Origin: a virus
DNA: 64,000 bases
Direction: 5' to 3' (one strand)
Virus record (IMG/VR): IMGVR_UViG_3300027734_000055
Location: 10,776 to 74,775 of that record
Below are positions 1 through 64,000 of this stretch, one piece after another. Under the pieces are notes generated by a model, which worked only from the letters and a program-made list of their open reading frames with translations, had not been told where the DNA came from and did no database searches. The stretch's first letter is position 1; every line of letters begins with the position of its first letter. Both the position numbers and the translations under genes were made by a program.

Positions 1-27
1 TGTTTGTTCAGGTGCAGGACTAACATA

Positions 28-4152: not shown

Positions 4153-4448
4153 TGGCTAACATAATAAAAACAAAAGCGCCTAACTTACCTATACCTACAA
4201 TTGCGTATAGCCAAACATATCAAGAATCATTTAGTAATGCACAACGTCTTTATTTTAATACGCTTGATGCAGCTAACGGGCAAACAATTGACGCAGTAAA
4301 TACTTTATCAACACCCAGTGCAGGGATTACAGCAGCTCGTCCAAGTACAGGTTTACAAGTAGGACAGTTTTATTTTGATACTACTATAAATAGACCCATT
4401 TGGTGGACTGGAAGTAATTGGATAAATGCTGCAGGAACCGTAGTATAA
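4152..4448 (+). CDS. Small tail protein (needle/plug-like position) with a fibre-adaptor repeat
   Basis: N-terminal PNLP...Y; C-terminal TAARP..G..YFDTT....WW.G..W motif shared with the tail-fibre proteins. Confidence 0.5.
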   Translation: MANIIKTKAPNLPIPTIAYSQTYQESFSNAQRLYFNTLDAANGQTIDAVNTLSTPSAGITAARPSTGLQVGQFYFDTTINRPIWWTGSNWINAAGTVV

Positions 4449-4495
4449 GGCTTAGAAACATGATATTATTAGCACATATTTAAGGACTTTCAATT

Positions 4496-6676
4496 ATGAC
4501 AACATCCCACACAGCTCAAGGTTTAGCTTCTCTAGGTCGTAACGGCGACTCAATGCTCGTTCATATGAGTCCTCACGAGGTTGCAGGACTTAATTATCTT
4601 GCAAAAAAACAAGGCACTAAACTTACTGTTAACCCAGATACAGGCCTTCCAGAAGCGTTTAGTCTAGGCGGGTTCTTTAGTTCATTATTACCTACTTTAG
4701 TAGGTGGCGCTTTTGGATTTGGTGCAGCCCCTTTATGGGCAGGTATAGCAGCGGGAGCGGCAACAGGAGCTGTAACTAATAAAAAGAACCCATTGATGGG
4801 GGCTTTAATGGGGGGACTAGGCGGTTATGGAGGTATGGGTATCGGTGACGCCCTATCTAAAACTATGGCTATTACTAGCCCTGCTTCAATAGCTTCTCCT
4901 GCAGCACAATCAGCTGTATCGGGTATAGGACCAGGTGCAATAGGCACTACAGGAGAAATAGGTGGTGCTAATTTAATTGGTAGTGGTATTGCTGGGGGTA
5001 CAGCAGGAACTAATGCTGCTGCGTCAAATATTTTTGGGGCGATGAAGAATTCAGGTGTTAATATAGCTGATCCTATAGCACAAGACGCTGCTAAAAATGC
5101 GCTACAATCAATTCCTAAAACATCAAACTTTTCTGGTATAAATATGGATCCTACTTCTAAGTTCTTGGAGCCAACAGTATTCGACCAAGGTTATGGCGCT
5201 TCTATAGCCCAGCCTAGTGGTACTGCGGGCGGATCTACATTAATAGGTGAAGCTAGAAATTTAGGTAATAGTGCATTATCAAACCAAAGCCCTCTTATTG
5301 CAGGAGCGATGTCAAGTTCACCTACTCCAGGATTTGGAGAAACATTCATAGATCAATTAGGTGGTAATAGTGCTGCCATGAAAAAATTAGGTCTTCCATT
5401 AGGTGGGGCTGTATTAGGCGGACTAGAACCTTCTGATATTTATGGTAATCCTATTAAGCCAAAAGAAGATAAATACGATCCATACGCTACATTAAATTTA
5501 AGTAATGATACAGGTCTTCGGTTAGTTGCTAAAGGTGGCTATATTGATGGATATGCAGTAGGTGGAGTAGTATCTAATCCTTCAGTAGGTGGAGGTATTT
5601 CCGATTTATATAACAGACCTGAAGGTCAAGCCACTGAAACAATTTCAGAAGACGGTTATGGTATTGGTAGATTAAATACTTTAGCTGGGCAAGAGGCATT
5701 AAATAATGCTAAGACTTTAGGCTATGCAATGGGCGGTCCGGTAAGTTTTGCTGATGGTGGTGACGCTATGAAATTACAAGATGAAATTACACCTATTGAT
5801 CAAAGTATGGGATTAGGTAATCTAAGTGCTACTGTGCCTCCTCCTGCAGGACAAGCAATGCAAGCTAACCAAGTTCAAAATACAGCGTCAGCGTTATCAG
5901 ATACAGCAAGTTCAGAAGGTAGTATTGTTGCCCAAGTAGCAAACAATTTAAGAAACGATCCTAACTACCAACCAAAGAATCCTATTGAAGCTGCTATCGT
6001 AAAACAAATGAAAGGTACTGAGCCTACAGACCAAGGAAAACAAGCACAAGGTTTGGGTTCGATTGCGCCTAGCCAACCTATGGCACCAAGTTATAATCCG
6101 TCAGTTGCTATGGGCCCAACATATTATGCTGGCATGAATGCACCTCGTGGATTTGCTGATGGTGGCGATGTAGCTAGTGGCGATTTATCTGCAGAAAGCG
6201 CGGCTGACTTAGTAGCATTCCAAATGGCTCAAGCTAATAATCCTTCAGGTTTATATGGCGCTAATAGTCAAGGTTATGGTATTACTGCACCAACAAGAAA
6301 TCCTACTGTTCCTTCATATAGTGTTTCTCCAGAAATGCAAAGATCCATGGCGATGAGAGATTTAGAGAGACAAAGATTAGAAGCTCTTGTTGCACCCTCA
6401 TATAGACCAAGAGGTTATGCGCATGGCGGTTACTTAGATGGCGCTGGTGATGGTATGTCTGACTCAATACCTGCTACAATAGAAGGTAAACAGCCAGCAC
6501 GTTTAGCAGACGGTGAATTCGTAGTACCAGCAGATGTTGTAAGTCATTTAGGTAATGGTTCATCTAAGGCAGGGTCAAAGAGACTTTATGCTATGTTAGA
6601 CAAAGTAAGAAAAGCTAGAACAGGTCATACTAAACAAGGTAAAGAAATTAATCCTAGTAAATACATGCCTGCATGA
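4496..6676 (+). CDS. Putative internal virion/ejection protein with repeated xxGG motifs
   Basis: 726 aa, Gly/Ala-rich. N-terminal GRNGDSMLVHMSPHEV...NPDTGLPEAF, C-terminal GDGMSDSIPA...LADGEFVVPADVV, several (F/Y)AxGG motifs. Confidence 0.6.
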   Translation: MTTSHTAQGLASLGRNGDSMLVHMSPHEVAGLNYLAKKQGTKLTVNPDTGLPEAFSLGGFFSSLLPTLVGGAFGFGAAPLWAGIAAGAATGAVTNKKNPLMGALMGGLGGYGGMGIGDALSKTMAITSPASIASPAAQSAVSGIGPGAIGTTGEIGGANLIGSGIAGGTAGTNAAASNIFGAMKNSGVNIADPIAQDAAKNALQSIPKTSNFSGINMDPTSKFLEPTVFDQGYGASIAQPSGTAGGSTLIGEARNLGNSALSNQSPLIAGAMSSSPTPGFGETFIDQLGGNSAAMKKLGLPLGGAVLGGLEPSDIYGNPIKPKEDKYDPYATLNLSNDTGLRLVAKGGYIDGYAVGGVVSNPSVGGGISDLYNRPEGQATETISEDGYGIGRLNTLAGQEALNNAKTLGYAMGGPVSFADGGDAMKLQDEITPIDQSMGLGNLSATVPPPAGQAMQANQVQNTASALSDTASSEGSIVAQVANNLRNDPNYQPKNPIEAAIVKQMKGTEPTDQGKQAQGLGSIAPSQPMAPSYNPSVAMGPTYYAGMNAPRGFADGGDVASGDLSAESAADLVAFQMAQANNPSGLYGANSQGYGITAPTRNPTVPSYSVSPEMQRSMAMRDLERQRLEALVAPSYRPRGYAHGGYLDGAGDGMSDSIPATIEGKQPARLADGEFVVPADVVSHLGNGSSKAGSKRLYAMLDKVRKARTGHTKQGKEINPSKYMPA

Positions 6677-7086
6677 ACATCGTACAAATCGTAGCGCCCA
6701 ATAACATATATAATGTTTGGGAAGATGTAAAAGAATATTTAAATGCTTCTATTAATGTAAGCGGCGGGGATTTTACTTTAGACCAATTAAAATTAATATT
6801 GGCTAGAGGTGAACAAACATTATTAGTATCTGTTGATGAAAAAGGCATACTTAATGGCGCGATGACTGTAGAGTTTTCTAATCGTCCTAATAACCGAGTG
6901 ATGTTTATTACAGCATTAGGTGGAAATGGTATAGTAAATAAAGACACATTCGACCAAGTAGAATCATGGGCTAGAATGCAAGGTGCAACAAAAGTAAGTG
7001 CATGGGCACAAGAAGCGCAAGCAAGGTTGTACAAAATCAAATCAAATTTTAATACTGTAAGATACGTTGTGGAGAAAGATTTATGA
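6673..7086 (+). CDS. GNAT-fold-like virion-module protein (P22 gp14-like position)
   Basis: 137 aa with ITALGG...WARMQGATKV pattern typical of these phage acetyltransferase-like proteins; supported by synteny. Confidence 0.5.
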   Translation: MNIVQIVAPNNIYNVWEDVKEYLNASINVSGGDFTLDQLKLILARGEQTLLVSVDEKGILNGAMTVEFSNRPNNRVMFITALGGNGIVNKDTFDQVESWARMQGATKVSAWAQEAQARLYKIKSNFNTVRYVVEKDL

Positions 7087-8186
7087 AATTATTTAATTTG
7101 TTTAACTGGGTTACTAATCTAGTAGAAGCATTTACATTTTATGGCGGTGGTGACTCTGGTGGTGGAGGCTCTCAAACTTCTACTTCTTATTCTACTAACT
7201 TACCTGAATATGCAAAGCCCTACTATGAAGAGCTTTTAAAACAAACAGGTAAAAATGTTTATACGACTGATGCCTCAGGTACTGTTACAGGCGTTAAAGG
7301 TATGCCTACTTATACTGGGGAAAGAATTGCAGGATTTACTCCAGAACAATTAAAAGTTCAATCTGATGTAGCAGGTATGACGAGACCTGGTGGTTTTGGT
7401 GCAGCTACTACAGGACTTGGTGTAGGACAAACTATGGGTTTCGGTGCTGCGGGTACTGGACTTTCTCAAGCATTTGGTTATACACCCACAACAACTTATG
7501 GGGGTACATTTACACCAGGCGCAGCTGCTGCTTATATGTCGCCTTATGCTTCTAATGTAACTGACATTGCTGTAGCCGAAGCGCGTAAACAAGCAGATTT
7601 AGATAGGTCTGCAGGTGCACTAGGTGCTATTGGTCGAGGTACATTTGGTGGCGCACGTCAAGCTTTATTACAAGCTGAACAAGGTAAAGGTGCTGCACAA
7701 AATATTGCTAATATTAGAGCTCGTGGTCAACAAGAAGCATATACAAATGCTCAACAACAATTCCAAGCTGACCAAGCTAGACGCTTACAAGCTGAACAAC
7801 TTAATCAACAAGCACAACAATATCAAGCAGGACTTGGTAAAGACATCGGTCTTGCGGGTCTTACAACTGGTATTGAAGCTTCTGGTAAACAAGCAGCAGC
7901 AGCCGCAGCACAACAAACTGCTGATCTAGAAAGATTAAAAGCACAAGCAGCTACGGGTGCTGAACAACAAGCTTACCAACAAAAAATTGACGATATTAAA
8001 TATCAACAGTTCCAAGAACAAAATAATTACCAAAAACAACAACTTGAATATCTCAGTAATATTCTTCGTGGTAATGCAGCGGCTCTTGGGTCAACTCAAG
8101 TTCAATATACACCACCACCTTCTACTGTATCTCAAATTGGTGGTTTAGGTTTAGCTGGACTTGGTTTAATGAAAGCTTTAGGTTAA
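7083..8186 (+). CDS. DNA ejection (pilot) protein, P22 gp7-like position
   Basis: Short leader then GGGDSGGGG, Gln/Ala-rich coiled coil with GTFGGARQAL, and a hydrophobic Gly-rich C-terminus. Confidence 0.6.
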   Translation: MKLFNLFNWVTNLVEAFTFYGGGDSGGGGSQTSTSYSTNLPEYAKPYYEELLKQTGKNVYTTDASGTVTGVKGMPTYTGERIAGFTPEQLKVQSDVAGMTRPGGFGAATTGLGVGQTMGFGAAGTGLSQAFGYTPTTTYGGTFTPGAAAAYMSPYASNVTDIAVAEARKQADLDRSAGALGAIGRGTFGGARQALLQAEQGKGAAQNIANIRARGQQEAYTNAQQQFQADQARRLQAEQLNQQAQQYQAGLGKDIGLAGLTTGIEASGKQAAAAAAQQTADLERLKAQAATGAEQQAYQQKIDDIKYQQFQEQNNYQKQQLEYLSNILRGNAAALGSTQVQYTPPPSTVSQIGGLGLAGLGLMKALG

Positions 8187-8195
8187 GGATAAACT

Positions 8196-9713
8196 ATGAA
8201 CATTATTAAATTACAAAATGAATTAAAAGGTGTGCCTGATGACGCACTTATTGGTTATGTTCAAAATCCTACAGGCACTGTACCTAGTTATTTAGCATTA
8301 TCAGAATTACAACGCAGAAAAGAAATGCGTGAAAAATATCAAGCCGCTCAACCAGAAAAGACAACTGTAGCTGAAGATTTAGCAGCACCACAACCACAAG
8401 GTATTGCGGCAATCCAACAACCTGCACAAGCTCCTGTAGCAGAACCAGGTGTAGCAGGTCTTCCTGTACCTGATCAAATGTTCAGTGGCCAAGGTATGGC
8501 AGCTGGTGGTATCGTAGCGTTTGATGATGGTGGCTATGTTAATCCTGGTTTAGTAGGAGGCCCTGTACAAGAATCATTACCTTGGTATTCAGGTATTAAT
8601 GATTTTTTAAATAGAAATTTTGATTGGTCAGCTACAAATAGAGCAGCAAGAGAAAAAGGTATTGGAAATGAAGTAACTAATCCGTTTATTTCTGGTATGC
8701 CTAGAACTGATATTGCAGATGAATACTTAATGCTTCGTCAAAAAGTTAATACAGGTAAAGGTACTTATCAAGATATTGATCGTATGAAACAAATTGAAGG
8801 TCAAGGTACTCCTGCAGCACAAGTTCCTACTGGTGGCGGTTATATACCTGGTCAAAAAACTCAAGCTGATATTCAATCTGATATTGATAAACAAAGGCAA
8901 TTAGCTAAAGATAAAGAAGCTGCTATTAAAAATGTATATGCACCTAAAGGTGGTGCAGCAAAAGAAAGTATTAAGAGCCTAGCTGATTATGCTAAAGAAT
9001 TTAGAGATGTTGTAGGCGAAGATCCTATGCAAAAAGCTTTAATGAAAAGAATGGAATCTATGGATACAGCTGCAGCTAAACAAGCAGAACAAGCACCATG
9101 GATGGCATTAGCACAAGCTGGCTTCTCTATGGCCGGTGGTAAGTCTCCATATGCATTACAAAATATTGCAGCCGGTGCATTAGAAGGCGTTAAAACTTAT
9201 GGTGACGCTAAAGATAAAATGGCTGCATTAGAAGATAAACGATTCAGTCTTATGGCTGATATGGCTAAATCTCAACGCGCTGAACAACTTGCTATTGCAT
9301 CTAAAGGTGCTGATAGTCGTGATGCTGCGTTAGCTCGCGAACAACAAGATAGACTTAATAAAGAGAAGATGGCTAATGATATGCAAATCCATTTACTCGA
9401 CAATACGTTTGACTTACGTGGTAAAGAAATTGCTGCGGCTCAAAAAGATCAACCTGATGCTACAGCAAGAGCTACTAAGATTTGGCCTTTAGTTCCTGAA
9501 CAACAAGAATACAAAGATAAAATGAAGCAACTTATTAATACATTAGGTGATGAAGCTCCAACACCAGGTACTAGAAATCATAATAAATATCTTGAAGGTA
9601 GAAGAGCTATTGAAAACGAAGTCTATAATAATTTAATTAGAAAACCTGGTATGGGCACAACTGGCGCACGATATACATTTGATGCGACTAGTGGAAAGAT
9701 AATGCCACTCTAA
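8196..9713 (+). CDS. Putative DNA ejection protein (gp20-like position)
   Basis: 505 aa, helical and Ala-rich, contains MAAGG/FDDGG motifs; supported by synteny. Confidence 0.55.
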   Translation: MNIIKLQNELKGVPDDALIGYVQNPTGTVPSYLALSELQRRKEMREKYQAAQPEKTTVAEDLAAPQPQGIAAIQQPAQAPVAEPGVAGLPVPDQMFSGQGMAAGGIVAFDDGGYVNPGLVGGPVQESLPWYSGINDFLNRNFDWSATNRAAREKGIGNEVTNPFISGMPRTDIADEYLMLRQKVNTGKGTYQDIDRMKQIEGQGTPAAQVPTGGGYIPGQKTQADIQSDIDKQRQLAKDKEAAIKNVYAPKGGAAKESIKSLADYAKEFRDVVGEDPMQKALMKRMESMDTAAAKQAEQAPWMALAQAGFSMAGGKSPYALQNIAAGALEGVKTYGDAKDKMAALEDKRFSLMADMAKSQRAEQLAIASKGADSRDAALAREQQDRLNKEKMANDMQIHLLDNTFDLRGKEIAAAQKDQPDATARATKIWPLVPEQQEYKDKMKQLINTLGDEAPTPGTRNHNKYLEGRRAIENEVYNNLIRKPGMGTTGARYTFDATSGKIMPL

Positions 9714-9714
9714 A

Positions 9715-12700
9715 ATGCCAAGCGTAAACGTACCAGGATTTGGAGTCATTGACTTTCCGGAAGATATGTCTCCGGATCAAATTAGCGAAGCAATCAAAAC
9801 ACAAGTTCCTGCTTTTAGACAAAAAAGAGATGAAGAACTTAGACCTGATTTATCATTAGGTGAAGCTGCTAGACGTGCAGTGATTCGTGGCGGTAAACAA
9901 GTAAGTTCTGCATTCGGTGATATTATCCCAGCAATTGGTGCAAGCGCATTAGGTTTTGATGACTATGCTAAACGCCAAATGGAAGAAGCTGCGGCAACCC
10001 AAGAAGAAATTCAAAATAGATTTGCTCCTGAAGTTCGATCCTATAAAGAAGTAACTGGCCCAATGTCTGCACTTAAGTATGGTGTAGAAACCGTTGGTGA
10101 ACAAATTCCTAATTTAGCAACAGCGTTAATACCAGGTGGTGTAGGCGCTATGCTAGGTAGACGTGCTGCGATGGGTGCGGCTGAAGCTGCTGGACTCGGT
10201 ACAAAAGAAGCTACCGAATTATTAGCAAGTCGTCAAGCACTCGGTCAAAACTTAGGTGTCTATCTAGGTTCATATGCTCAAAACGCTCCTGAAGTATTTC
10301 AAAATATATACGACACCTCTGGTCAATTAGAACCAAGTGCAGCTTTGTTATTTAGCTCAGTCGGCGCTGCGTTAGATTCTGCGTTCCCTGCGGCAATTAT
10401 GAATAAACTAACTAAGCCTGCTAAGATGGGCTTGATAGAAAAGGTATTAGAAAAGTCTGGCATGGAGCCAAGTTTACTTCGTAAGATTACAGCAAGTGTG
10501 CCGGAGTCTATAGCACTAGAAGGTTTAACTGAGGGTGCACAAGAAGCTATTAGTTTAAAAGCAGAAAACTTTGTTAATAAGAATGCTGGACTATTTAATT
10601 CTGAAGGCTGGAATCGCATACTAGAATCTACTATACGTGGTGGTATTGCCGGTGGTGCATTTGGTACTGCTGCAGCTATCCCTGAAAGATTAAGTGAAAG
10701 AGCTCAAGCTCAACCTACGCCAACAACTGAACAACCTACACCTGAATCTGATATAGTAGGAATTAAAAAAGAACCTGCTGTGCAGGAGATGAGGACACAA
10801 GATGGACTTCCAATCACCGGAACTAGAGAAGTTAACACCGCAGGAATTGGAGAAACTCTTCAAGTACCTGGACGACCCAATGAGCCAGGACTTCCCACAG
10901 GAACTACAGAAGATCTCGGAGCTGGAGCTCCTGGGGTTACAACTAATGTTGAACCAACTGATGGACGAGAAGCGCAACAGCCCTCTACACTAACTCAAGA
11001 CGCTCAAGATTTAATACGTTCAGTCGAGGCTGGTGGTGTACCAGCTATGATGACTAATAATCTTCGACGTATTGCAAAAGAAAACGGAATTGAGCTTACT
11101 CCACAAACAACACCTAATGACATTATTGCAGCACTTCAAACTAAATTAACTGAAGCCAAGCCATTAGACATAACAGATACAGCACCTATTAGAGATGCAG
11201 CTGAAGTTCCTACTGACGTTAAAGATTCTGAAATCACTCCTCAAGAAATAGTTAAAGCTCAACCTAGCCCAGAAACAGTTACATTACCTGATACAAAAGA
11301 AACAGCTCAATCTATTATTGATCATCTTGTTAATGAATTTGGTAATAATATTAGAACTGCTCAAAATAGAGGCACTATAAAAGTTGTAAATAATGCTGAA
11401 GAGCTTTCTAAATTAGGAGTAGATGTAGCGCCTAATGCTATTGGGGCATACTCAAAAGGTACGTCTTATATTATAGCTAACCGTTTAACTAAAGATAACT
11501 CAAGACGTGCTTTGTTACATGAAGTAGGAGAGCACCACGGGTTAGAAGGCATGCTTGGTAAAAATATTTATAAACAAGTCTTACGCCAAGTTAAACAACT
11601 TAATACTATGGATAAGGTTGTTACCGAAGCTCATGACCATGTTACTCAACAATACCCAGAATTACAAATAGGTTCAGATGCACATACACGAGAAGTGCTT
11701 GCACGGATAGGCGAAGTAGCTCCAGAAAATACATTGTGGAGAAAAGTTGTTGGTGCGGTTAAAAACTTTTTAACTAAAGCTGGATTATATAATCCTAACA
11801 AAATGACTACAGCAGATCTTCATGATTTGATTCTGCACTCTACCAGAACTGTATTAAAACGTGGTACGCCTCAACAAATAACTACCAAGCCAGAAGTTCA
11901 AATGGCTAAAGCAGGTCCTACTAATACAGTAGATCCACAAAATTCTAAAGGTGTTATGGACTCCGTAGGTGATACTATTAAAGCTACACCTATATATAAC
12001 TCTAGATTAGCACAAGATGTAAGAAATGTTTATTCTACAATCCCAGATAGACTTAGAGCTATTGGTCTTTCATTCTTATCATTACCTCAACAAGCAGATT
12101 TATTTGGTAAAGAACTTCCGGCGCTTAATGATCTATTAGATATTATTAATAAACGTGCTGGTGCATTACAACAATATCGACAACAAGTTGATGACAAAGT
12201 ATTTAGGGGTTTTGAATTACTTAAAAATTATCCTAAACCAGTTGTAGATAAATTTAACGATGTTGCACATAAATTAACAGCGCTTCGTATTGATCCTAGA
12301 AGAGGCAAAGATGAACAAGAAAATTGGAATGACCAATTAATAGCTGCATGGAATAATATAGATAAACCTTTACGCGATCTAGCATATGAATACTCAGATG
12401 CTTTTGGCAAATCTAGAGAGACTATGATTAAACAAGTAGAACTCTTTGCTGGTAAATCTATTGCGGATCAATTAAGAAATAGGTTTGAAAAAGAAAAGAT
12501 TTCATTCTACTTACCATTAAGACGTAAAGGTAATTACAGATTAGCTTACTTTGATAAAGATGGTGAGCGTGTTGTAATTCATAAAGAAACTCCTGCTGAA
12601 CTAGCTATTGCAGTTAAAGAAGCGCAGAAAGCTAATGGCCAAGACATAACAACTAGTTTACTCACAAGAGAATTAAACTATAAAGATACGCCTCCTTTAG

Positions 12701-44080: not shown

Positions 44081-44995
44081 ATGGCTATTTCACGCGCACA
44101 GCTCCTTAAGGAGCTCTTACCAGGACTAAATGCACTATTTGGTCTAGAATACAAACGTTACGGTGAAGAATCTAAAGAAATTTACGAAACTGAAACATCA
44201 GAACGTTCATTCGAAGAAGAAACAAAACTTTCAGGTTTCTCAGCAGCACCAGTCAAAAACGAAGGCACTGCAATCGCTTATGACAATGCTCAAGAAGCTT
44301 GGACAGCTCGATACAATCATCAAACTATCGCTCTTGGCTTTTCTTTAACAGAAGAAGCTGTAGAAGATAACTTGTATGATACATTATCAGCACGTTACAC
44401 AAAGGCTTTAGCTCGCGCTATGGCTTACACAAAACAAGTTAAGGCTGCTTCAGTTCTTAATAATGGTTTCAATAACTCCGGCTCTTATGACGGTGGTGAC
44501 GGCGTATCATTATTTAACACAGCTCATCCTCTTGTTTCAGGTGGCACAAACAGCAACACTCAATCAACTCCTACAGACTTGAACGAAACAGCATTGGAAA
44601 ATGCAGTTATTCAAATCGCTGCTTGGACTGATGAACGTGGTCTTTTGATCGCTGCTCAACCACGTAAGTTAGTAGTTCCACCAGGTAATCAATTCGTTGC
44701 AACTCGTTTGCTCGAAACTGAACTTCGTGTTTCTACAGCTGACAATGACATCAATGCTATTAAGAATAATGGTTCAATTCCAGAAGGTTACACAATTAAC
44801 CACTTCTTAACAGATCCTGATGCTTACTTCTTAACAACTGATGTACCTAACGGCATGAAACACTTTGTGCGTACTCCGTTATCTACTTCAATGGATGGCG
44901 ATTTTGACACAGGCAATGTTAGATACAAAGCTCGTGAGCGTTATTCATTCGGTTGGTCAGATCCTCTCGGTATGTGGGGTTCACCAGGCGCTTAA
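44081..44995 (+). CDS. Major capsid protein
   Basis: MAISRAQLLKELLPGLNALFG...DFDTGNVRYKARERYSFGWSDP, strong Shine-Dalgarno, highly biased codons, terminator downstream. Confidence 0.9.
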   Translation: MAISRAQLLKELLPGLNALFGLEYKRYGEESKEIYETETSERSFEEETKLSGFSAAPVKNEGTAIAYDNAQEAWTARYNHQTIALGFSLTEEAVEDNLYDTLSARYTKALARAMAYTKQVKAASVLNNGFNNSGSYDGGDGVSLFNTAHPLVSGGTNSNTQSTPTDLNETALENAVIQIAAWTDERGLLIAAQPRKLVVPPGNQFVATRLLETELRVSTADNDINAIKNNGSIPEGYTINHFLTDPDAYFLTTDVPNGMKHFVRTPLSTSMDGDFDTGNVRYKARERYSFGWSDPLGMWGSPGA

Positions 44996-45020
44996 TAGCA
45001 ACTGGCTACGTACTACTAAA

Positions 45021-45051
45021 AGGGCTCACTTAAAATGTGGGCTCTTTTTTT
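45021..45051 (+). terminator. Rho-independent terminator after the major capsid gene
   Basis: AGGGCTCAC-loop-GTGGGCTCT followed by a T-run. Confidence 0.8.
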
Positions 45052-45146
45052 ACCTGTAATTCATGGTTTTCTTGATGTTTGTTTTCATTCAATTTGAAAT
45101 AATGCAGTTGTAGAGTGAAAACTTTATATAACTTTAGGAGATTATT

Positions 45147-45224
45147 ATGAAAACATGGACTAAACCAGCAGCAACTGAAATGAGATTTGGCTTTGAAGTA
45201 ACTATGTACGTAATGAATAAGTAA
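45147..45224 (+). CDS. pqqA: Coenzyme PQQ precursor peptide PqqA (25 aa; not in ORF track)
   Basis: Hand-translated MKTWTKPAATEMRFGFEVTMYVMNK. It has the W.KP......GFEVT.Y PqqA signature with the ExxxY core, and an AGGAG Shine-Dalgarno at 45136-45140. Confidence 0.93.
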   Translation: MKTWTKPAATEMRFGFEVTMYVMNK

Positions 45225-45243
45225 TAGTTCTTTGCTTTAAATT

Positions 45244-45265
45244 AAGGGGCTTCGGCCCCTTTTTT
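45244..45265 (+). terminator. Rho-independent terminator after pqqA
   Basis: AAGGGGC-TTCG-GCCCCTT followed by a T-run. Confidence 0.85.
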
Positions 45266-45303
45266 ACTTGCTTTATATATAAAATGTAGTATTATTCTCC
45301 TAT

Positions 45304-45375
45304 CCGGGTATATCCGGTTTATTAGACTGTCCCGGCAGACGCATATAAGACTAATAGACTTAACTCTATATGGAG
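45304..45375 (+). ncRNA. Candidate pseudoknotted cis-regulatory RNA in the 5' UTR of 45384..45809
   Basis: GGTTTATTAG/CTAATAGACT stem encloses a CTG-TCCCGG-CAG hairpin whose loop is complementary to upstream CCGGG. Confidence 0.4.
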
Positions 45376-45383
45376 AAAATCAA

Positions 45384-45809
45384 ATGGCTTATACAACCTT
45401 TAGCGGCCCAGTCCGTTCATTAGCAGGCTTTGCAGAACCAGTAACATACATCAAAGCTACAGACGTAGTAGCAGGTGAAGTTATTATTGAAGCAGGCGCT
45501 AACGTAGTTATTCTTTCACCAGCAGATGGTGGTCCAGCAACTGAAGCTGCTTTAGTACTTCCAGAAGTAGTTAGTGGTGCATTTACTTTAGCTGATCAAC
45601 CAGCAGATGCTCAATACAATGGTATTAAAGGCTCAGTATTGAACTACGGTGCAGTTGCTCACGTATTAAAAGGCTACGGCACACAAAAAGTTAACGGTTC
45701 AACAACAGGCGTTGTTATTCCAGCTGGCTATGTTACTCAATGGGGTGGCAACGGTAACCAAGCTGCGCCTTGGGCTGCTGCTAACTCAGTTCTTTCAACA
45801 GCTAAATAA
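45384..45809 (+). CDS. Virion structural protein (capsid-associated, putative)
   Basis: MAYTTFSGPVRS start typical of post-capsid genes in these phages; biased codons. Confidence 0.55.
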   Translation: MAYTTFSGPVRSLAGFAEPVTYIKATDVVAGEVIIEAGANVVILSPADGGPATEAALVLPEVVSGAFTLADQPADAQYNGIKGSVLNYGAVAHVLKGYGTQKVNGSTTGVVIPAGYVTQWGGNGNQAAPWAAANSVLSTAK

Positions 45810-47021: not shown

Positions 47022-47541
47022 ATCTAAAGCACAAAGAAATCTTATGGCTGCCGCAGCTCACAATCCTGCGTTTGCTAAAAAGGTAGGGATTCCTGTATCA
47101 GTAGCTCAGGAATTTAACAAAGCTGACAAAGGTAAAAAATTTAAGGAGGGTGGTATGATGGATAAGAAAGATTTAATGCAGGATAAAATGCTTATTAAAA
47201 AAGCAATGAAACAACATGACGCACAAGAACATAAGGGTGGCAAAGGTACTAAGCTAGCTCTTAAAAAAGGTGGCGTTGCTAAAACTGTTACTAAGGAGAT
47301 GGAATATGATTATAAAACAGGTAAAAAATCTTTTACTGGTACAACTGCCCAAAAAGATGCTCACGCTGAAAAAGAAGGTAAAATCGTTGCTAAACATTTA
47401 GCTTATGATAAAGATATGGACAAAATGTGTGGTGGTGGTATGGCTAAATCTAAAAAATATGCTAGCGGCGGTAAAGTATCTCAACTAGCTAAAGCTAATG
47501 GTATTGCTGTTAAAGGCAAATCAAGAGGCACACTTATTTAA
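47011..47541 (+). CDS. Basic protein with multiple xxGG motifs and a C-terminal basic motif
   Basis: Likely start ATG 47011 (MPSKSKAQ); FKEGG, LKKGG, MCGGG, YASGG; ends ANGIAVKGKSRGTLI. Confidence 0.65.
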   Translation: MPSKSKAQRNLMAAAAHNPAFAKKVGIPVSVAQEFNKADKGKKFKEGGMMDKKDLMQDKMLIKKAMKQHDAQEHKGGKGTKLALKKGGVAKTVTKEMEYDYKTGKKSFTGTTAQKDAHAEKEGKIVAKHLAYDKDMDKMCGGGMAKSKKYASGGKVSQLAKANGIAVKGKSRGTLI

Positions 47542-47550
47542 GGATATATC

Positions 47551-47967
47551 ATGGCAGAAAAAAGAAAAATGATGGACGAGTTTAAAGCAATAAAAGATGC
47601 TCAAGTTTTAAGAGAAATGTCTGATGATCCAATAGCAGCACAACGCGCATTAAATGCAACAGCACAAACTGCTAAAGCTTTAAGAGGTATGCAAATGGGT
47701 AAAATAGAAGCCCCTATGAGCGACGATATGGGTCCATCTTCTAAAGTACCTCCTGTTAAAATGCCTGACTTAAAAACTAAAGATACAGGCGATAAAAATG
47801 AATTTGATGTTAAAGGTGAAAAAATGCCTGGATATGAAAATTCAAAACCTATGAAAAAAGGTGGCAAAGTAAAAGCTAAATGTATGGCTTCAGGTGGCAA
47901 AGTGTCCCAATTAGCAAAAGCTAATGGTATCGCTGTTCGCGGCAAGTCTAGAGGACGTATTATTTAA
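47551..47967 (+). CDS. Basic protein sharing its C-terminus with the upstream gene
   Basis: MKKGG, MASGGKVSQLAKANGIAVRGKSRGRII. Confidence 0.65.
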   Translation: MAEKRKMMDEFKAIKDAQVLREMSDDPIAAQRALNATAQTAKALRGMQMGKIEAPMSDDMGPSSKVPPVKMPDLKTKDTGDKNEFDVKGEKMPGYENSKPMKKGGKVKAKCMASGGKVSQLAKANGIAVRGKSRGRII

Positions 47968-47976
47968 GGAGCCCAT

Positions 47977-56689: not shown

Positions 56690-57778
56690 ATGGCACAAAT
56701 TATTCTAGATTCTAACAATAACTTAATACAAGGTGACTTTGATAACGCCACGTTAAACAATCGTACTAAGTTACAAACCACAACAACTAACGCCACGACT
56801 AACGTCTACGTAGCTCCTAACGGTTCATCTACATCTGCAGGGGTCTCAGTCGCTAATAACTCAAGTCTTACAAATGCATCTAAGATTGTCATGGCTACAA
56901 ACGGCACAACAGATACACAAATTATTTCCGGTGTAAATGGTTCTGGTACTTATTTACCTTTGAGCTTTTATACGAATAATGCTTTAGCGATGCAAATTGA
57001 TACATCACAGAATGTAGGGATTGGTACTACGAGTCCTACTGGTAAACTACACACAGTTACCGCTGATGGAAATAATATTGGCGCATTTTTCTCATCTACA
57101 AACGGTGCATTAAAAATAAGACCTTATTTAGATGCAACAACTGGTGCTGAAATTACTGGAAATAATCCTGCTATATCAGCATTTATACCGCTAACATTAA
57201 ATGGTTCTGTTTTAAGATTTGCTAATAGTGGTACAGAAGCTATGCGTATAGACTCTAATGGTACTGTATGTATAAATTCAACATCTCCACCAGTTTCTGA
57301 TAATAGATTGACTATTACTTACGCTTCAGCAACTCAATCTGCTGCGAGTATTAAAAATACAAGTACAACATTTGGTGGAAACCTGTTTACTTTTTATAAT
57401 GCTAGTACTGCTCAATGTGGAGCTATTACTCAAACAGCTACAACTACTACTGCATATACTACATCATCTGATTATAGATTAAAAGAAAATATTGTTCCTA
57501 TGACAGGAGCTTTAGATAAAGTGTTACAACTTAAACCTGTAACATATACATGGAAAGAAGATGGTTCAAATGGTCAAGGTTTTATTGCTCACGAACTAAA
57601 AGAAGTAGTACCAGATGCAGTTGTTGGTGAGAAAGATGCAGTAAATGAAGATGGTTCTATTAAACCACAATCAATTGACACATCATTCCTAGTAGCTACT
57701 CTAACAGCAGCAATCCAAGAACAACAAACTATCATCAACGAATTAAAATCAAGAATAGAAGCTTTGGAGAGTAAATAA
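56690..57778 (+). CDS. Tail fibre/spike with C-terminal intramolecular chaperone (peptidase S74)
   Basis: NVGIGTTSP repeats, SDYRLKENI, GFIAHEL and C-terminal coiled coil. Confidence 0.85.
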   Translation: MAQIILDSNNNLIQGDFDNATLNNRTKLQTTTTNATTNVYVAPNGSSTSAGVSVANNSSLTNASKIVMATNGTTDTQIISGVNGSGTYLPLSFYTNNALAMQIDTSQNVGIGTTSPTGKLHTVTADGNNIGAFFSSTNGALKIRPYLDATTGAEITGNNPAISAFIPLTLNGSVLRFANSGTEAMRIDSNGTVCINSTSPPVSDNRLTITYASATQSAASIKNTSTTFGGNLFTFYNASTAQCGAITQTATTTTAYTTSSDYRLKENIVPMTGALDKVLQLKPVTYTWKEDGSNGQGFIAHELKEVVPDAVVGEKDAVNEDGSIKPQSIDTSFLVATLTAAIQEQQTIINELKSRIEALESK

Positions 57779-59073
57779 TGTCCTCACTCATTTTAGGCGG
57801 AGATACCTCAGGAACCATAACGTTAACAGTGCCAACCACGGCTGGAACGAATACAATCACTTTGCCCGCTTCGACCGGTACTGCGATCACTACAGCGTCT
57901 ACATCAGGTATACCTAATACAATCAACTGGACAACAGTGCAGACATCAAGTGTGAGCCCAGCGGTAGCAGGTACAGGCTACCCAATGAACACAACAAGCG
58001 GCGCTCTAACCGTGACATTACCAGCAAGCCCAACAGCAGGTAACTTAATTTCTATTGTGGACTACGCAGGTACAGCCGCTACAAATAATATTACGATAGA
58101 TCCAAACGGCGGAAAATTACAAGGCTCAACATCAAACGGAAAAATAAGTACAAATCGTGAGGCTGTTAATTTAGTTTATGTAGATAGTACTCAAGGATGG
58201 TTAGCTTACGCTGATGTTTATTCTACTGGAAACCCTCTCCCTGTTTCTTATACTGCTACTTATTTAGTTCTTGCTGGCGGTGGCGCTGGCGGTGGTAACT
58301 CTTCTGGTGGTGGCGGTTCAGGCGGCGGCGGTGCTGGAGGATTAGTTACAGGAACATTTACGGCTACCCAAGGATCAGGTACAGTTTATACTGCTGTAGT
58401 AGGTGGTGGTGGCGCAGGCGTAGCTCCAGGTTTAGGGGGTAACGGAACTGCATCATCATTTACTGGCGTAACTTCTGCTGTAGGTGGAGGCGGAGGCGGT
58501 GGATCACAAACTGGTAATGCTGGGTCTTCAGGAGGATCAGGTGGTGGAGGCGGTGGTGGACCAAGTTCAGGACCAGGCGGAGCAGCAACACCAGGACAAG
58601 GTAATACAGGCGGAAATGGTACAGCGGGACCAGGACAAAACTCTGGCGGCGGTGGCGGTGGATCAGGTGGTGTAGGAGCTACAGGAGTTCAAAATACTAA
58701 TTCAGGTGCTGGTGGTGCTGCAACGGCAAATTCAATTACAGGTACCCCTGCTTTTTATGGAGGCGGTGGAGGCGGTGGATCTCAAGGCGGTGGAAATCCT
58801 GCGGGTCTTGGTGGTCCTGGTACTCCAGGAACTTCTGGTGGTAATGGCGGAACCGCTGTTGCGGGCGGTGCTGGCGTAGTTAACACAGGTGGTGGCGGTG
58901 GTGGTACAGGTGGTAACCCATCTGCTGGTGGTGCGGGTGGTTCAGGTGTAATCATACTTTCTGTTCCCACAGCTAATTACTCTGGTACGACAACAGGTTC
59001 ACCTACTATTACAACCTCTGGTGCTAATACAATTATTAAATATACATCTGGTTCAGGAACTTACACAGCATAA
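57778..59073 (+). CDS. Glycine-rich tail fibre/adhesin-like protein A1
   Basis: GDTSGTITL..P..AGTNTITLP N-terminus, TVTLPASP..G...QGW domain, Gly-rich domain. Confidence 0.7.
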   Translation: MSSLILGGDTSGTITLTVPTTAGTNTITLPASTGTAITTASTSGIPNTINWTTVQTSSVSPAVAGTGYPMNTTSGALTVTLPASPTAGNLISIVDYAGTAATNNITIDPNGGKLQGSTSNGKISTNREAVNLVYVDSTQGWLAYADVYSTGNPLPVSYTATYLVLAGGGAGGGNSSGGGGSGGGGAGGLVTGTFTATQGSGTVYTAVVGGGGAGVAPGLGGNGTASSFTGVTSAVGGGGGGGSQTGNAGSSGGSGGGGGGGPSSGPGGAATPGQGNTGGNGTAGPGQNSGGGGGGSGGVGATGVQNTNSGAGGAATANSITGTPAFYGGGGGGGSQGGGNPAGLGGPGTPGTSGGNGGTAVAGGAGVVNTGGGGGGTGGNPSAGGAGGSGVIILSVPTANYSGTTTGSPTITTSGANTIIKYTSGSGTYTA

Positions 59074-60341
59074 TGGCTTCTTTCATTGTCTACGGTGACG
59101 CGTCAGGTCAGGTTACAGTTAAAGCTCCTGCTGTTGCAGGGACAAACACAATTACGTTCCCAGCTGAGACAGGTACACTTTATACATCAGCGTCAACATC
59201 GTACCTAAATGGTCAAATCGCATGGGACACAACAGTTAAGACTTCAGGGTTCACAGCGGTAGCGTATGGTGGTTATTTTTGTAATACGACAAGTGCAGCG
59301 TTTACAGTCACATTACCAAGCTCACCTACTCGTGGTCAGTTTGTAGTTATTGTTGACTATGCAGGAACAAGTGCAACTAATAATATAACTGTGGCTGGTA
59401 ACGGTGCAAAGATAAATGGAAATAGTAGTAACAAACTACTTCAAACTAATAGACAAGGTATTACATTTACTTACATAGATTCAACTCAAGGTTGGCTAGC
59501 TACAAGCAACGTCTATGGAGGTTCAACACCTTTTATTAATGCGCCTTATACAGCTTCGTATTTAGTTGTAGCTGGTGGCGCTGCAGGGGGATGGAATAAC
59601 GGCGGCGGAGGCGGTGCTGGTGGATATTTAACTGGAACAGCTACTTTTAATGTAGGAACTACATATACCGTGACTGTAGGTGGCGGAGGAACTGCTGTAA
59701 CAACTTATGGTTCACGAGGGGGTAATGGTTCTGACTCAATTATTTCAGGATCAGGATTATCTACAATTACTTCTACAGGTGGTGGAGGTGGAGGAAGTTA
59801 TTTAGCTCCATCAGGGGGTTCAGGCGGTTCAGGCGGTGGAGGATGTCCTGCTGATAGTGCTAGTTCTCCTGGTTCTGGTACGCCAGGTCAAGGTAATGGT
59901 GGAGGACCAGCAGGAAGTCCAAACACTCACGGTTCTGGAGGTGGAGGCGCTGGCGCTGTTGGAGGTTTACCAAATGGTGGTGATGGATCTGCTTCAAGTA
60001 TAACAGGAACTCCAGCTACAACAGCTGGTGGTGGTGGTGGCGGTGCTGGTAACCAAGCGGCTGGCTCTGGTGGTGCTGGTGGTGGAGGTGCTGGTGGTGT
60101 TACAGGAGGTCCAGCTCGTCAAGGAACTGCGGGAACTACAAATACTGGTTCTGGTGGTGGAGGTACTGGTGGTGGCGGTGGATTAGGTTCTACTCCAAGT
60201 GGTGCTGGAGGTTCAGGTGTTGTATTTATTTCTGTACCTACTGCGTCATACTCAGGTACTACCACAGGATCTCCAACTATAACAACAAACGGATCAAACA
60301 CTATAATACAATATACAGCTTCAGGAACTTACGTAGGATAA
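59073..60341 (+). CDS. Glycine-rich tail fibre/adhesin-like protein A2
   Basis: Paralog of 57778..59073 over its full architecture. Confidence 0.7.
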   Translation: MASFIVYGDASGQVTVKAPAVAGTNTITFPAETGTLYTSASTSYLNGQIAWDTTVKTSGFTAVAYGGYFCNTTSAAFTVTLPSSPTRGQFVVIVDYAGTSATNNITVAGNGAKINGNSSNKLLQTNRQGITFTYIDSTQGWLATSNVYGGSTPFINAPYTASYLVVAGGAAGGWNNGGGGGAGGYLTGTATFNVGTTYTVTVGGGGTAVTTYGSRGGNGSDSIISGSGLSTITSTGGGGGGSYLAPSGGSGGSGGGGCPADSASSPGSGTPGQGNGGGPAGSPNTHGSGGGGAGAVGGLPNGGDGSASSITGTPATTAGGGGGGAGNQAAGSGGAGGGGAGGVTGGPARQGTAGTTNTGSGGGGTGGGGGLGSTPSGAGGSGVVFISVPTASYSGTTTGSPTITTNGSNTIIQYTASGTYVG

Positions 60342-60349
60342 TATATAAT

Positions 60350-60640
60350 ATGGCTAAGATGACTATAGAAGAACTTATAAAAGAATTTAGTAACGAACAA
60401 GGTTTTCAATTTGGTATTGACATTGTGATGAAGTCATTACGACCAGGTGCACTTTACGGCTTATCAGCCTCTGGAGGTACTTTTGAAATCGTATCGTGGG
60501 ATGAGTCAAACGAATTACCCGCACCGTCATCACAAGAAATACGAGATGAATATATTCGTCACCAAACCATTAAAGAATTTATAGATATTTTAGAACAAGC
60601 AAAACTAAACAAGAAATCTAGAGTTAGGAAAACTGCTTAA
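60350..60640 (+). CDS. Tail fibre assembly/accessory protein (XkdW-like)
   Basis: SLRPGA...W......PS..EI pattern, located between fibre genes. Confidence 0.45.
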   Translation: MAKMTIEELIKEFSNEQGFQFGIDIVMKSLRPGALYGLSASGGTFEIVSWDESNELPAPSSQEIRDEYIRHQTIKEFIDILEQAKLNKKSRVRKTA

Positions 60641-61737
60641 TGGCTATTGTATTAGATTCAGTTAACGGTATTACCCAAGCCTCATGGACTACAGCAGGTC
60701 GCCCTGCTACACCTAGTGCAGGACAAGTTGGCTTTAATACATCGTTAAATGCGCTAGAACAATACACAGGAGCTGCATGGGAAACGATACCTACATGGTC
60801 AACAGCGAATAGACCAAGTTCTCCAGTAGCTGGCTACCAAGGATACAATACATCATTACTCGCTTTTGAGTTTTATAACGGTACAACATGGGTTGGGTTT
60901 AATTCTAACATCTTGACGTACTCTGCGAGTTACTTAGTTGTAGCGGGCGGTGGCGGAGGAGCAGGAGATTTAGGTGGTGGTGGTGGAGCTGGTGGGTATG
61001 TTACAGGTACAACATCTTTAACAACAGGTACAGTATATACTGCTGTTGTAGGCGGAGGTGGTGCTGGATCTGTTGCACCTGCAATTGGCACTGCTGGAAC
61101 AAGTTCAACTTTTACTGGAGCAACAACAGCTGTTGGCGGAGGTGGTGGTGGTTGCACTACACCAGGAAGCGCACAAAATGGTGGCTCTGGAGGTGGCGCA
61201 AGGGGAACTTCCGCTGCAGGAACAGGAACACCTGGTCAAGGAAATAATGGAGCAAATGCACCAAGTGGAATTGCCTCTGGCGGTGGTGGTGGCGGTTCTT
61301 CATCTGTTGGAGTTACAGGAACATTAAGTATTGCAGGCAATGGTGGTAATGGAACAGCAAATTCAATTACAGGATCTTCAGTAACCTATACTGGTGGTGG
61401 CGGTGGAGGCGGAGGTTATCCAGGAGCTCCCTCTGGACCAGCTGGTATTGGAGGTCCAGGTACTCCTGGAGTTAGTGGGGGTAATGGAGGAACTGGTCCT
61501 GCTGGCGGACCAGCAACGAGTGGAACTGCAGGCGTAGTTAATACAGGTGGTGGCGGTGGCGGTGGCGGAGTACAAAGTCCTTCTGGACCGGGCGGAGCTG
61601 GAGGCTCAGGCGTAGTTATATTAAGCGTACCTACTTCATATTACACAGGTACAGTAACAGGAACATATACAACAGGAACTTCAGGATCTAATACTTGGAT
61701 TAAATGGACTACAGGGTCTGGAACATACACAGCTTAA
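60640..61737 (+). CDS. Glycine-rich tail fibre/adhesin-like protein B1
   Basis: Two W.TA.RP..P..G..G(F/Y)NT.L repeats, then a Gly-rich domain. Confidence 0.7.
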   Translation: MAIVLDSVNGITQASWTTAGRPATPSAGQVGFNTSLNALEQYTGAAWETIPTWSTANRPSSPVAGYQGYNTSLLAFEFYNGTTWVGFNSNILTYSASYLVVAGGGGGAGDLGGGGGAGGYVTGTTSLTTGTVYTAVVGGGGAGSVAPAIGTAGTSSTFTGATTAVGGGGGGCTTPGSAQNGGSGGGARGTSAAGTGTPGQGNNGANAPSGIASGGGGGGSSSVGVTGTLSIAGNGGNGTANSITGSSVTYTGGGGGGGGYPGAPSGPAGIGGPGTPGVSGGNGGTGPAGGPATSGTAGVVNTGGGGGGGGVQSPSGPGGAGGSGVVILSVPTSYYTGTVTGTYTTGTSGSNTWIKWTTGSGTYTA

Positions 61738-61756
61738 AAGAATTTAGGAGAATCAT

Positions 61757-62809
61757 ATGGCATTAGTACTTAACGGAACAACAGGGATTAACAACGTAAC
61801 TTGGTCAACGGCAGGGCGTCCAGCGTCGCCTGCTACAGGTCAAACAGGTTATAACACAACCCTAAATGCCTACGAAACATACAACGGTACTGGCTGGACT
61901 GTGACAGCTTCATGGACAACGGCTAATCGCCCTGTAACTCCCGCTGCAGGATACTCAGGCTATAACACAACACTCCTAGCATTTGAATTTTATAACGGCA
62001 CTTCTTGGGTTTCTATTAACTCTAACTACCTTACTTATACAGTTTCATATTTATTATTAGCTGGTGGTGGTAGTGGAAATAGTGATTTAGGAGGAGGTGG
62101 TGGAGCAGGTGGATACTTAACTGGCACTACATCTTTAACATCTGGTACAGTTTATACTGCTGTAGTGGGTGCAGGAGGTTCAAGTAATGCAGCTGGATCT
62201 AATTCAACATTTACGGGTTTAACAACTGCAGTAGGTGGCGGTAATGGGGGCGCTGCACCTGGGGGATCTGGTGGTGGAGTTAGAGGAAACGGTCCTGCTG
62301 GCACAGGAACTCCAGGTCAAGGAAATAATGGAGCTAATGCTCCTAGTAATGATAACTCTGGTGGTGGTGGTGGAGGATCTGGAAGTGCAGGTACTATATC
62401 TAGAGTTTCTCCAGCTTCAGCAGGTAATGGTGGTAATGGCACAGCTAATACAATTACAGGTTCATCAGTCACTTATGGCGGTGGCGGTGGTGGCGGTGGT
62501 AGCTATCCTCTTGCTCCTTCTGGTCCAGCTGGATTAGGTGGTCCAGGCACTCCAGGCGTTTCTGGTGGTAATGGTGGATCTGGAAGCCCAGGTTCAGTAG
62601 GAACAGCTGGAGTTGTTAATACAGGTGGTGGCGGTGGAGGTGGAGGAGTTGGTGTTGCTGGAGGTGCTGGTGGTTCTGGTGTAGTTATTATTTCTGTTCC
62701 CACAGCTAATTATACTGGTACAACTACTGGAAGTCCAACAGTGACAACATCAGGAAGTAATACAATCATCAAGTGGACTACTGCTGGGTCTGGTACTTAT
62801 ACAGCTTAA
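61757..62809 (+). CDS. Glycine-rich tail fibre/adhesin-like protein B2
   Basis: Close paralog of 60640..61737. Confidence 0.7.
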   Translation: MALVLNGTTGINNVTWSTAGRPASPATGQTGYNTTLNAYETYNGTGWTVTASWTTANRPVTPAAGYSGYNTTLLAFEFYNGTSWVSINSNYLTYTVSYLLLAGGGSGNSDLGGGGGAGGYLTGTTSLTSGTVYTAVVGAGGSSNAAGSNSTFTGLTTAVGGGNGGAAPGGSGGGVRGNGPAGTGTPGQGNNGANAPSNDNSGGGGGGSGSAGTISRVSPASAGNGGNGTANTITGSSVTYGGGGGGGGSYPLAPSGPAGLGGPGTPGVSGGNGGSGSPGSVGTAGVVNTGGGGGGGGVGVAGGAGGSGVVIISVPTANYTGTTTGSPTVTTSGSNTIIKWTTAGSGTYTA

Positions 62810-63179: not shown

Positions 63180-63452
63180 ATGAATATGGAAAAAATAACG
63201 AGTATGTTATTCCCAGTGATAGTCTCGGCTATTGCTTGGTTACTTACTTCAATGTCTGCTATTCAGGCTGACTTAATTAGCATTAAATCTAAAATGCCTA
63301 ACCTTATTACAGAACAAGGTGTACCTACTGATAGCCCAATCTCAGCAGAAGCAAGAGCTAGATTGAAAGAAGAACTAAGAGCTCAAATGGGTGAACTTAA
63401 TGTGCGTATTAGAATTTTAGAAGAACATGAAAAATCAAAAGGATTTAAATAA
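63180..63452 (+). CDS. Membrane coiled-coil protein (copy 2)
   Basis: Diverged copy of 945..1217. Confidence 0.55.
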   Translation: MNMEKITSMLFPVIVSAIAWLLTSMSAIQADLISIKSKMPNLITEQGVPTDSPISAEARARLKEELRAQMGELNVRIRILEEHEKSKGFK

Positions 63453-63937
63453 TGTTTAGCATCCTCTCATCCATACTAGGTTTTGCTACTGCAGGTTTAC
63501 CTAGCATACTAGGGTTCTTTCAACAAAAAGGAGACCAATCACATGAACGTGAAATGGCTAAGTTGCAAAATGAACAAGCTCTACTTATGGCTCAAAAAGG
63601 TTTTCAATCTCAAGAAAAAATAGCAGCTATTGAATTGGAGGGTACTTATGCAGAAACATTCGCACAAGAACGTCAAGCACTATATGAACACGATGCAAAA
63701 CTGGTTCACGATGCAGCACCCTGGGTTAGAACTCTTAACGCAAGTGTCCGCCCTATTGTTGCTTTCACTTTTGTAGCATTACTTTTATTTGTAGATATTG
63801 GTGGCTTTATTTGGGCTATTAAATCTGCAGGCTTTAGTCGTGAGTCTATGGACATTATATTTTCTGATGATGAGATGGCTATTGTAGGTTCTATTATTGG
63901 TTTCTACTTTGGTGCTAGGACTTGGGAAAAGAAATAA
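63452..63937 (+). CDS. Putative holin (copy 2)
   Basis: Diverged copy of 1217..1702. Confidence 0.65.
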   Translation: MFSILSSILGFATAGLPSILGFFQQKGDQSHEREMAKLQNEQALLMAQKGFQSQEKIAAIELEGTYAETFAQERQALYEHDAKLVHDAAPWVRTLNASVRPIVAFTFVALLLFVDIGGFIWAIKSAGFSRESMDIIFSDDEMAIVGSIIGFYFGARTWEKK

Positions 63938-64000
63938 GTGAATGTATCAAAAGCTGGCATCGCTCTTATCAAACATCACGAGGGTGTGCGTAGTCGTCCC
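63938..64000 (+). CDS. Endolysin copy 2, 5' fragment (runs off the window)
   Basis: Same first 21 codons as the 1703 gene, with synonymous changes. Confidence 0.8.
   Translation, partial: MNVSKAGIALIKHHEGVRSRP

Follow-up and report, generated by a model that had tools for sequence, protein, structure and literature searches.

Behind its major capsid gene, the phage genome analysed here carries a 25-codon gene that is confirmed as a genuine member of the PqqA family. We put at roughly three in four the probability that this pqqA is a functional, host-derived auxiliary gene, carried as a stand-alone cassette and supplying the consumed precursor of the cofactor PQQ; its expression, its processing and its benefit to the phage we infer.

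In the PQQ pathway, PqqD binds the peptide PqqA and PqqE makes a bond between its Glu and Tyr, after which a protease, PqqB and PqqC finish PQQ. PqqA is the sole pathway component that is consumed, one peptide per PQQ, and PQQ is the cofactor of the periplasmic methanol dehydrogenases XoxF and MxaF. The pathway steps are reportedly those described in Barr 2016 and Zhu & Klinman 2020. Methylotrophs of the OM43 and Ca. Methylopumilus type, abundant in coastal seas and lakes, have PQQ-dependent methanol oxidation at the core of their energy metabolism. Should replenishment of the consumed PQQ ingredient by phages be routine, methanol oxidation in infected cells may differ from that in uninfected cells.

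Identity of the peptide and its genomic setting

The window, that is, the whole stretch of 64,000 nucleotides analysed here, comprises bases 10776-74775 of an IMG/VR virus record of 74,775 bp (CheckV completeness 100%). A preliminary description of this DNA had reported a small ORF with its Shine-Dalgarno sequence behind the major capsid gene and had taken the product for PqqA. The coordinates and the ribosome-binding site agree with our reading, as does the 25-aa translation, letter for letter, and the upstream gene is indeed a major head protein (Table 1). The profile search that it had proposed as a check settles the family: the peptide scores 42.1 bits against PF08042 (E=8e-11, cut-off 21.1) and 40 bits against the equivalog model TIGR02107 (E=2.3e-10, cut-off 20). 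Since both models score about twice their curated cut-off, the ORF is not a chance one. The Glu-x-x-x-Tyr pair is present as E-V-T-M-Y at residues 17-21, the stop falls four codons past the Tyr, and the length fits a short, independently translated PqqA (about 20-30 aa). Residues 3-25 equal one of the two commonest Methylophilaceae PqqA peptides among the matches listed, from which the window peptide differs by a two-residue N-terminal extension. On the strength of this identity to host peptides, it is likely to be bound by PqqD, cross-linked by PqqE and made into PQQ.

Table 1 Features of the pqqA locus and of the record ends (window coordinates unless stated otherwise)
Feature	Position	Strand	Remarks
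Major capsid protein gene	44081-44995	+	phrog_371 major head protein, E=5e-21
Capsid-gene intrinsic terminator	45018-45051	+	12-bp stem, 7-nt loop, T-run; ViennaRNA -18.3 kcal/mol
Putative pqqA promoter region	45060-45103	+	motif, half-site and -10-like box
TTCATGGTTTT motif	45060-45070	+	upstream of pqqA
Second half-site TTCATTC	45084-45090	+	related to the TTCATGGTTTT motif
-10-like AATAAT	45098-45103	+	upstream of the pqqA Shine-Dalgarno sequence
Shine-Dalgarno AGGAG	45136-45140	+	6 nt before the pqqA ATG, read directly
pqqA	45147-45224	+	25 codons + TAA, ATG start; cross-link residues Glu17 and Tyr21
pqqA intrinsic terminator	45244-45266	+	GGGGCTTCGGCCCC stem and T-run, terminator scan
Pseudoknotted RNA leader	45300-45383	+	separate from pqqA; belongs to the next gene, 45384-45809 (141 aa)
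End copies	record 1-12540 and 61370-74775; window 945-1765 and 63180-64000		

With the capsid gene on one side and further virion genes downstream, pqqA is located within a bona fide virus genome. The record encodes a large terminase, a portal, a GroES-like protein, the capsid, an SU10-type adaptor, tail-fibre paralogues, a family-A DNA polymerase, a primase/helicase, a helicase and a 1634-aa DarB-like virion protein, and has no integrase. Its capsid is 64% identical in amino acids to that of pelagiphage HTVC027P, with which the head module from the GroES-like protein to the capsid is syntenic. The first ~12.5 kb of the record recurs in divergent form as its last ~13.4 kb (67-88% identity, offset ~61-62 kb), which points to a true genome of ~62 kb; the record, at about 1.2 genome lengths, probably joins two strain variants of it, and the pqqA region is present once. 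The phage is a lytic, tailed one of ~62 kb, of the HTVC023P/HTVC027P-like lineage.

Neither the family profiles of PqqB, PqqC, PqqD and PqqE nor tblastn with the PqqB-E proteins of two Methylophilaceae genomes gave a match anywhere in the 74,775-bp record, which bears out the earlier statement that the genome has no pqqBCDE; a PQQ-dependent dehydrogenase family match was likewise absent from the whole record. The enzymes would therefore have to come from the host. The record accordingly holds pqqA unlinked to pqqBCDE, which does not exclude membership of the PqqA family, as Methylophilaceae themselves keep orphan copies.

A cassette in a variable slot of the phage lineage

Among IMG/VR contigs that carry pqqA and whose capsids are 76-96% identical to that of the window, the gene lies 3' of the capsid gene in 22/22, usually 130-200 nt past the capsid stop. 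The hairpin and T-run of the capsid terminator occur at the same place in relatives with differing stem sequences, and the pqqA terminator is also found 3' of pqqA in most relatives of the lineage. When relatives were sampled through the capsid alone, with at least 1.5 kb of downstream sequence, only five of 46 carried pqqA, and the gene was absent throughout four complete relatives with 85-88% identical capsids. We consequently rejected the view that pqqA is fixed in this phage lineage. It is accessory there and dispensable for this virion type, although the phages without it may infect other hosts.

In the relatives without pqqA, a conserved RNA leader directly follows the capsid terminator, whereas in the window this leader follows the pqqA terminator and delimits the insertion slot on its downstream side. 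The cassette is thus a clean insertion in a variable slot. Carriers and non-carriers also differ in composition, with a median locus GC of 0.40 versus 0.49 (Mann-Whitney p=1.5e-6) and a capsid GC3 of 0.28 versus 0.57, in neither case controlled for phylogeny. The low GC of the carriers accords with pqqA being host-specific cargo of phages that infect low-GC pelagic Methylophilaceae, and the low-GC Methylophilaceae-type host proposed in the preliminary description is reasonable on this evidence.

Three relatives with capsids 76-81% identical to that of the window (L024, L030 and L108) encode other PqqA types, for instance with a T-Y-E-K-I-R-L leader, or with an E-Y-T-E-M-R-F leader and an I-A-N-K tail. 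Their peptides suggest that phages of other PQQ-making hosts may have swapped in the matching peptide. Separately, a locus from a bacterial metagenome-assembled genome (MAG), L230, shares with this lineage the surroundings of the capsid terminator, the motif and the RNA leader, with 93.6% identity over 78 nt to window positions 45301-45378; most probably a contig from a phage of the lineage ended up in the MAG bin.

Occurrence in other viruses

A tblastn search of GenBank phages returned ten full-length matches. Nine are records of Methylophilales/Methylophilaceae phages of five genome types, namely the myovirus Melnitz (four records), Venkman, P19250A, MEP301 and MEP401/402, and the tenth is an uncultured spring virus with 100% identity over 22 residues. 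The peptides of the cultured methylophages are 77-96% identical over 22 residues, and every GenBank phage pqqA that we read is a complete ORF with its own Shine-Dalgarno sequence. MEP431-434 and HIM624-A, which are listed in the taxonomy, fall outside the set read, so that pqqA cannot be claimed for all cultured methylophages.

That annotation misses genes of this size, as had been anticipated, is borne out in the cultured methylophage records examined. Those of Venkman, P19250A, MEP301 and MEP401/402 have no feature at pqqA, and in two cases a hypothetical protein is called on the opposite strand over the real gene (Melnitz_152, L006 2961-3056; UOF77531.1, L001 2067-2195).

In IMG/VR, two degenerate DNA patterns (at least 120 matches each) together yielded at least 154 distinct contigs with an intact PqqA. 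Nearly all viral copies among the matches listed have AAGGA or AGGAG upstream at a similar distance. A PqqB-E homologue was found neither in the sequence retrieved around pqqA from the 120 contigs listed in the first scan nor at six GenBank phage loci. Viral copies of pqqA are thus common and usually unannotated; as the gene is below the size limits of most gene-callers, surveys of auxiliary metabolic genes (AMGs) undercount it. The peptide type also offers a cheap marker for host prediction.

Hosts and their pqqA copies

To identify hosts, we scanned with a degenerate DNA pattern for the exact core E-M-R-F-G-F-E-V-T-M-Y, which gave at least 120 loci. Among the first 80 titles, almost all are Methylophilaceae (Methylotenera, Methylophilus, Methylobacillus, Methylovorus, Ca. 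Methylopumilus) or closely binned MAGs, and, among the matches listed, the two peptides most frequent in viruses are also the two most frequent in hosts. That the peptide has a Methylophilaceae-type form, as the preliminary description had stated, is borne out by this distribution, and the host is most likely a methanol-eating member of the family. As the peptide variant is common to several genera, the host can be called at family level only; a genus-level call was rejected, the window having no tRNA genes to help.

Candidate hosts have pqqBCDE together with several dispersed orphan pqqA genes. The 1.3-Mb chromosome of Ca. Methylopumilus universalis has three pqqA, none adjoining its pqqBCDE, isolate KH-45 has four, one of them in a canonical pqqABCDE operon, and Methylobacillus flagellatus has seven. 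A PqqB-E homologue is present at 27/120 host pqqA loci among the matches listed. These counts agree with published ones of 3-12 pqqA copies and a single pqqBCDE in Methylophilaceae genomes (Beck et al. 2014, PMC4109929). Many copies of pqqA beside one pqqBCDE suggest that precursor dosage matters in these bacteria.

Selection on the peptide and alternative explanations

The first pattern fixed G-F-E-V-T-M-Y, which makes invariance within it circular, and we therefore rescanned with a pattern anchored on the leader half that left the C-terminal half free. In this rescan, E-x-x-x-Y is kept and the stop falls four codons after the Tyr in 120/120 viral copies among the matches listed. Over 116 unique viral sequences from the matches listed, pN/pS is 0.21 (pS 0.59, pN 0.12), compared with 0.14 for the host copies listed. 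The W, P, R and N outside the first pattern are near-invariant. Among the matches listed, the window gene agrees with its nearest host copy at 61/69 nt and with its nearest viral copy at 65/69 nt. This pattern indicates purifying selection on the peptide and not on nucleotide identity to host DNA. In this respect the gene fits a viral auxiliary metabolic gene, being derived from a host metabolic pathway and kept under purifying selection.

The explanation that survives best beside a functional auxiliary gene is that pqqA is a neutral passenger, a host fragment of 72-78 nt, tiny and abundant in hosts, that was picked up repeatedly without benefit to the phage. The accessory distribution described above, with four complete relatives lacking the gene, is what such a passenger would show, and the many dispersed host copies offer ample material for capture. 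However, a neutral fragment would decay, and the viral copies examined, from siphoviruses, podoviruses and myoviruses, are all intact, keep the conserved residues and nearly always have a good Shine-Dalgarno sequence, despite a saturated pS of ~0.59. The selection on the peptide, with differences that are mostly synonymous, argues against a decaying passenger in the same way, and streamlined phage genomes seldom keep useless DNA. We consider this explanation improbable.

Less probable still, and quite unlikely in our view, is that the peptide serves as a decoy or inhibitor that ties up host PqqD/PqqE, so that less PQQ is made or the enzymes are redirected, an alternative that the preliminary description had raised. 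Competition with host PqqA is conceivable in principle for a leader peptide that binds PqqD. Viral peptides are, however, often identical to those of the host and should for that reason be ordinary substrates of the host enzymes, and a dead-end decoy would be free to lose the cross-link residues, which all the copies of the leader-anchored rescan keep, with neither residue required by that scan. Nor is there an obvious benefit in cutting the energy supply of the host during virion production.

A role in DNA exchange, as an attP core or a patch of homology for integration into host pqqA, was rejected as highly implausible. The copies in Venkman and MW202481 lie antisense to, or between, early/recombination genes, and some methylophages are of temperate types; but all copies are whole ORFs with their own Shine-Dalgarno sequence and none is a 3' fragment, the nearest host copy differs at synonymous positions, the record has no integrase, the locus lies inside a structural module, and the lytic myovirus Melnitz carries pqqA as well. 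Selection on the peptide, together with mostly synonymous differences, rules such a role out. Finally, misjoining of host DNA into a viral contig is the least likely explanation: the record is odd in its length and divergent ends, but the cassette recurs 3' of the capsid in the 22 independently assembled contigs, pqqA is present in isolate genomes, the pqqA region is single in the record, and similarity to bacteria stops at the ORF, the sole 'host' match outside it being L230, which looks like a binned phage contig.

Proposed function and relation to known systems

A functional auxiliary gene would act as follows. During infection, phage PqqA would be synthesised in the host cytoplasm and taken over by proteins of the host: PqqD would bind it, PqqE would join its Glu to its Tyr, and a protease together with PqqB and PqqC would carry the product through to PQQ. 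The phage gene would in this way keep PQQ synthesis, hence methanol-derived energy, going once host transcription declines. Since PqqA alone is consumed stoichiometrically and hosts amplify pqqA, supply of the precursor by the phage is the most economical explanation. Against it, PQQ is a stable and recycled cofactor, so that a supply limit within one infection is not obvious. We found neither a transcriptome nor a PQQ measurement for infection by a phage with pqqA in the literature searched.

Phage pqqA has its nearest analogue in cyanophage psbA (D1), a phage copy of a host component of fast turnover that presumably keeps up the energy supply when expression of host genes falls. The comparison is the closest we have and is an analogy only: in both cases the phage carries the component that is turned over or consumed fastest, but psbA codes for a structural photosystem II subunit and is supported by experiment, whereas pqqA encodes a sacrificial RiPP substrate with a putative role in phages.

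The preliminary description had left open whether a phage pqqA was already reported. It was, in 2020: a viral PqqA was described in the viral population VP_266, a T4-like methylophage from Lake Baikal, and proposed as an AMG that boosts methanol oxidation (Coutinho et al. 2020, Microbiome 8:163, PMC7678222). The idea is for this reason not conceptually new. VP_266 likewise has a phage PqqA precursor in a virus predicted to infect Methylophilaceae; it also encodes a methanol dehydrogenase (PMC7678222), whereas the window phage has neither a PQQ-dependent dehydrogenase nor another pqq gene, belongs to the ~62-kb HTVC023P/HTVC027P-like lineage and carries its pqqA downstream of the capsid gene in a cassette bounded by terminators. 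In a 2026 survey, viral pqqA is listed with the AMGs of phosphorus cycling, and the Melnitz paper mentions PQQ as a medium supplement only and does not mention pqqA. What is new here is the phage lineage, the cassette anatomy and the contrast between carriers and non-carriers, and the value of the present analysis lies in its breadth and context as well as in that anatomy.

The cultured methylophages (Venkman, P19250A, MEP301, MEP401/402 and Melnitz) resemble the window phage in having an intact pqqA with a Shine-Dalgarno sequence and the same peptide type. They differ in being of unrelated genome types, with pqqA in the early/recombination region, at the genome end or between tRNA genes. The orphan chromosomal pqqA genes of Methylophilaceae, too, stand alone, away from pqqBCDE, and encode the same peptide minus the two-residue extension; some have a TTCATG-type motif upstream.

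A motif upstream of pqqA

A scan found no canonical sigma-70 promoter upstream of pqqA, the best hexamer pair matching at 8/12 positions, and transcription may rely on read-through or on the candidate motif in the putative promoter region (Table 1). The conserved TTCATGGTTTTCT was considered as a repeated phage promoter and rejected as such: it occurs once in the window and is associated with pqqA instead. The motif is present in 3/5 pqqA-positive capsid relatives versus 2/68. Among the matches listed, it lies upstream of pqqA at 38/103 unrelated viral loci, compared with a background of 7/515, and upstream of 10/119 host copies, compared with 3/595. In the motif-anchored set of 53 unique sequences, A.AAT is found at +39 to +43. 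By virtue of this enrichment at unrelated viral and host pqqA loci, with A.AAT downstream, the gene seems to move together with a regulatory element, and we propose from these positions that the motif could act as a promoter element of pqqA.

The motif lies 60-100 nt upstream in phage cassettes versus ~123 nt in the chromosomal orphan copies of hosts, where a second TTCATGA repeat is clearer; the phage cassettes are thus compacted. Since the motif, as TTMATGRTTTT, is common to unrelated methylophages and some host orphan pqqA loci, we tentatively raise the possibility, which we hold for now to be rather less than an even chance, that the moving unit is a compact regulatory cassette of TTMATGRTTTT motif with second half-site, -10 box, Shine-Dalgarno sequence, pqqA and terminator, by which phages would plug a copy into the methanol/PQQ regulatory circuit of the host. 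If this were true, and if within one phage lineage the presence of pqqA also follows host group, the cassette would serve as a sequence marker for the infection of methylotrophs and would reflect a psbA-like dependency on a consumed precursor.

The RNA leader downstream and other observations

The RNA leader downstream of the pqqA terminator has an invariant core, AGACNG-(N)CCCGG-CNGAC, and its helices show compensatory changes among 31 relatives. Helix P1 pairs CCGGG (45304-45308) with the loop CCCGG (45331-45335) and varies as CTGGG/CCCAG, CAGGA/TCCTG and CTAGG/CCTAG. Helix P2 (45316-45325 with 45351-45359) has 10-13 double-sided compensatory changes per pair, and helix P3 (45342-45347 with 45367-45372), which abuts the Shine-Dalgarno sequence, occurs in 31/31 relatives, formed by about eight different complementary pairs. 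An Rfam scan of 44950-45450 gave noise only. The leader is a candidate riboswitch or translational operator.

Elsewhere in the window, four paralogous tail-fibre-like genes (57778-62809; 431, 422, 365 and 350 aa) share repeat segments that are 62-78% identical, and this array has a GC content of 0.47-0.48 versus 0.39 overall. A direct repeat of 111 nt with 71% identity (47434-47544 and 47860-47970) lies where two neighbouring genes of the virion module end, at their 3' ends, and indicates that the 184-aa and 138-aa products have paralogous C-termini.
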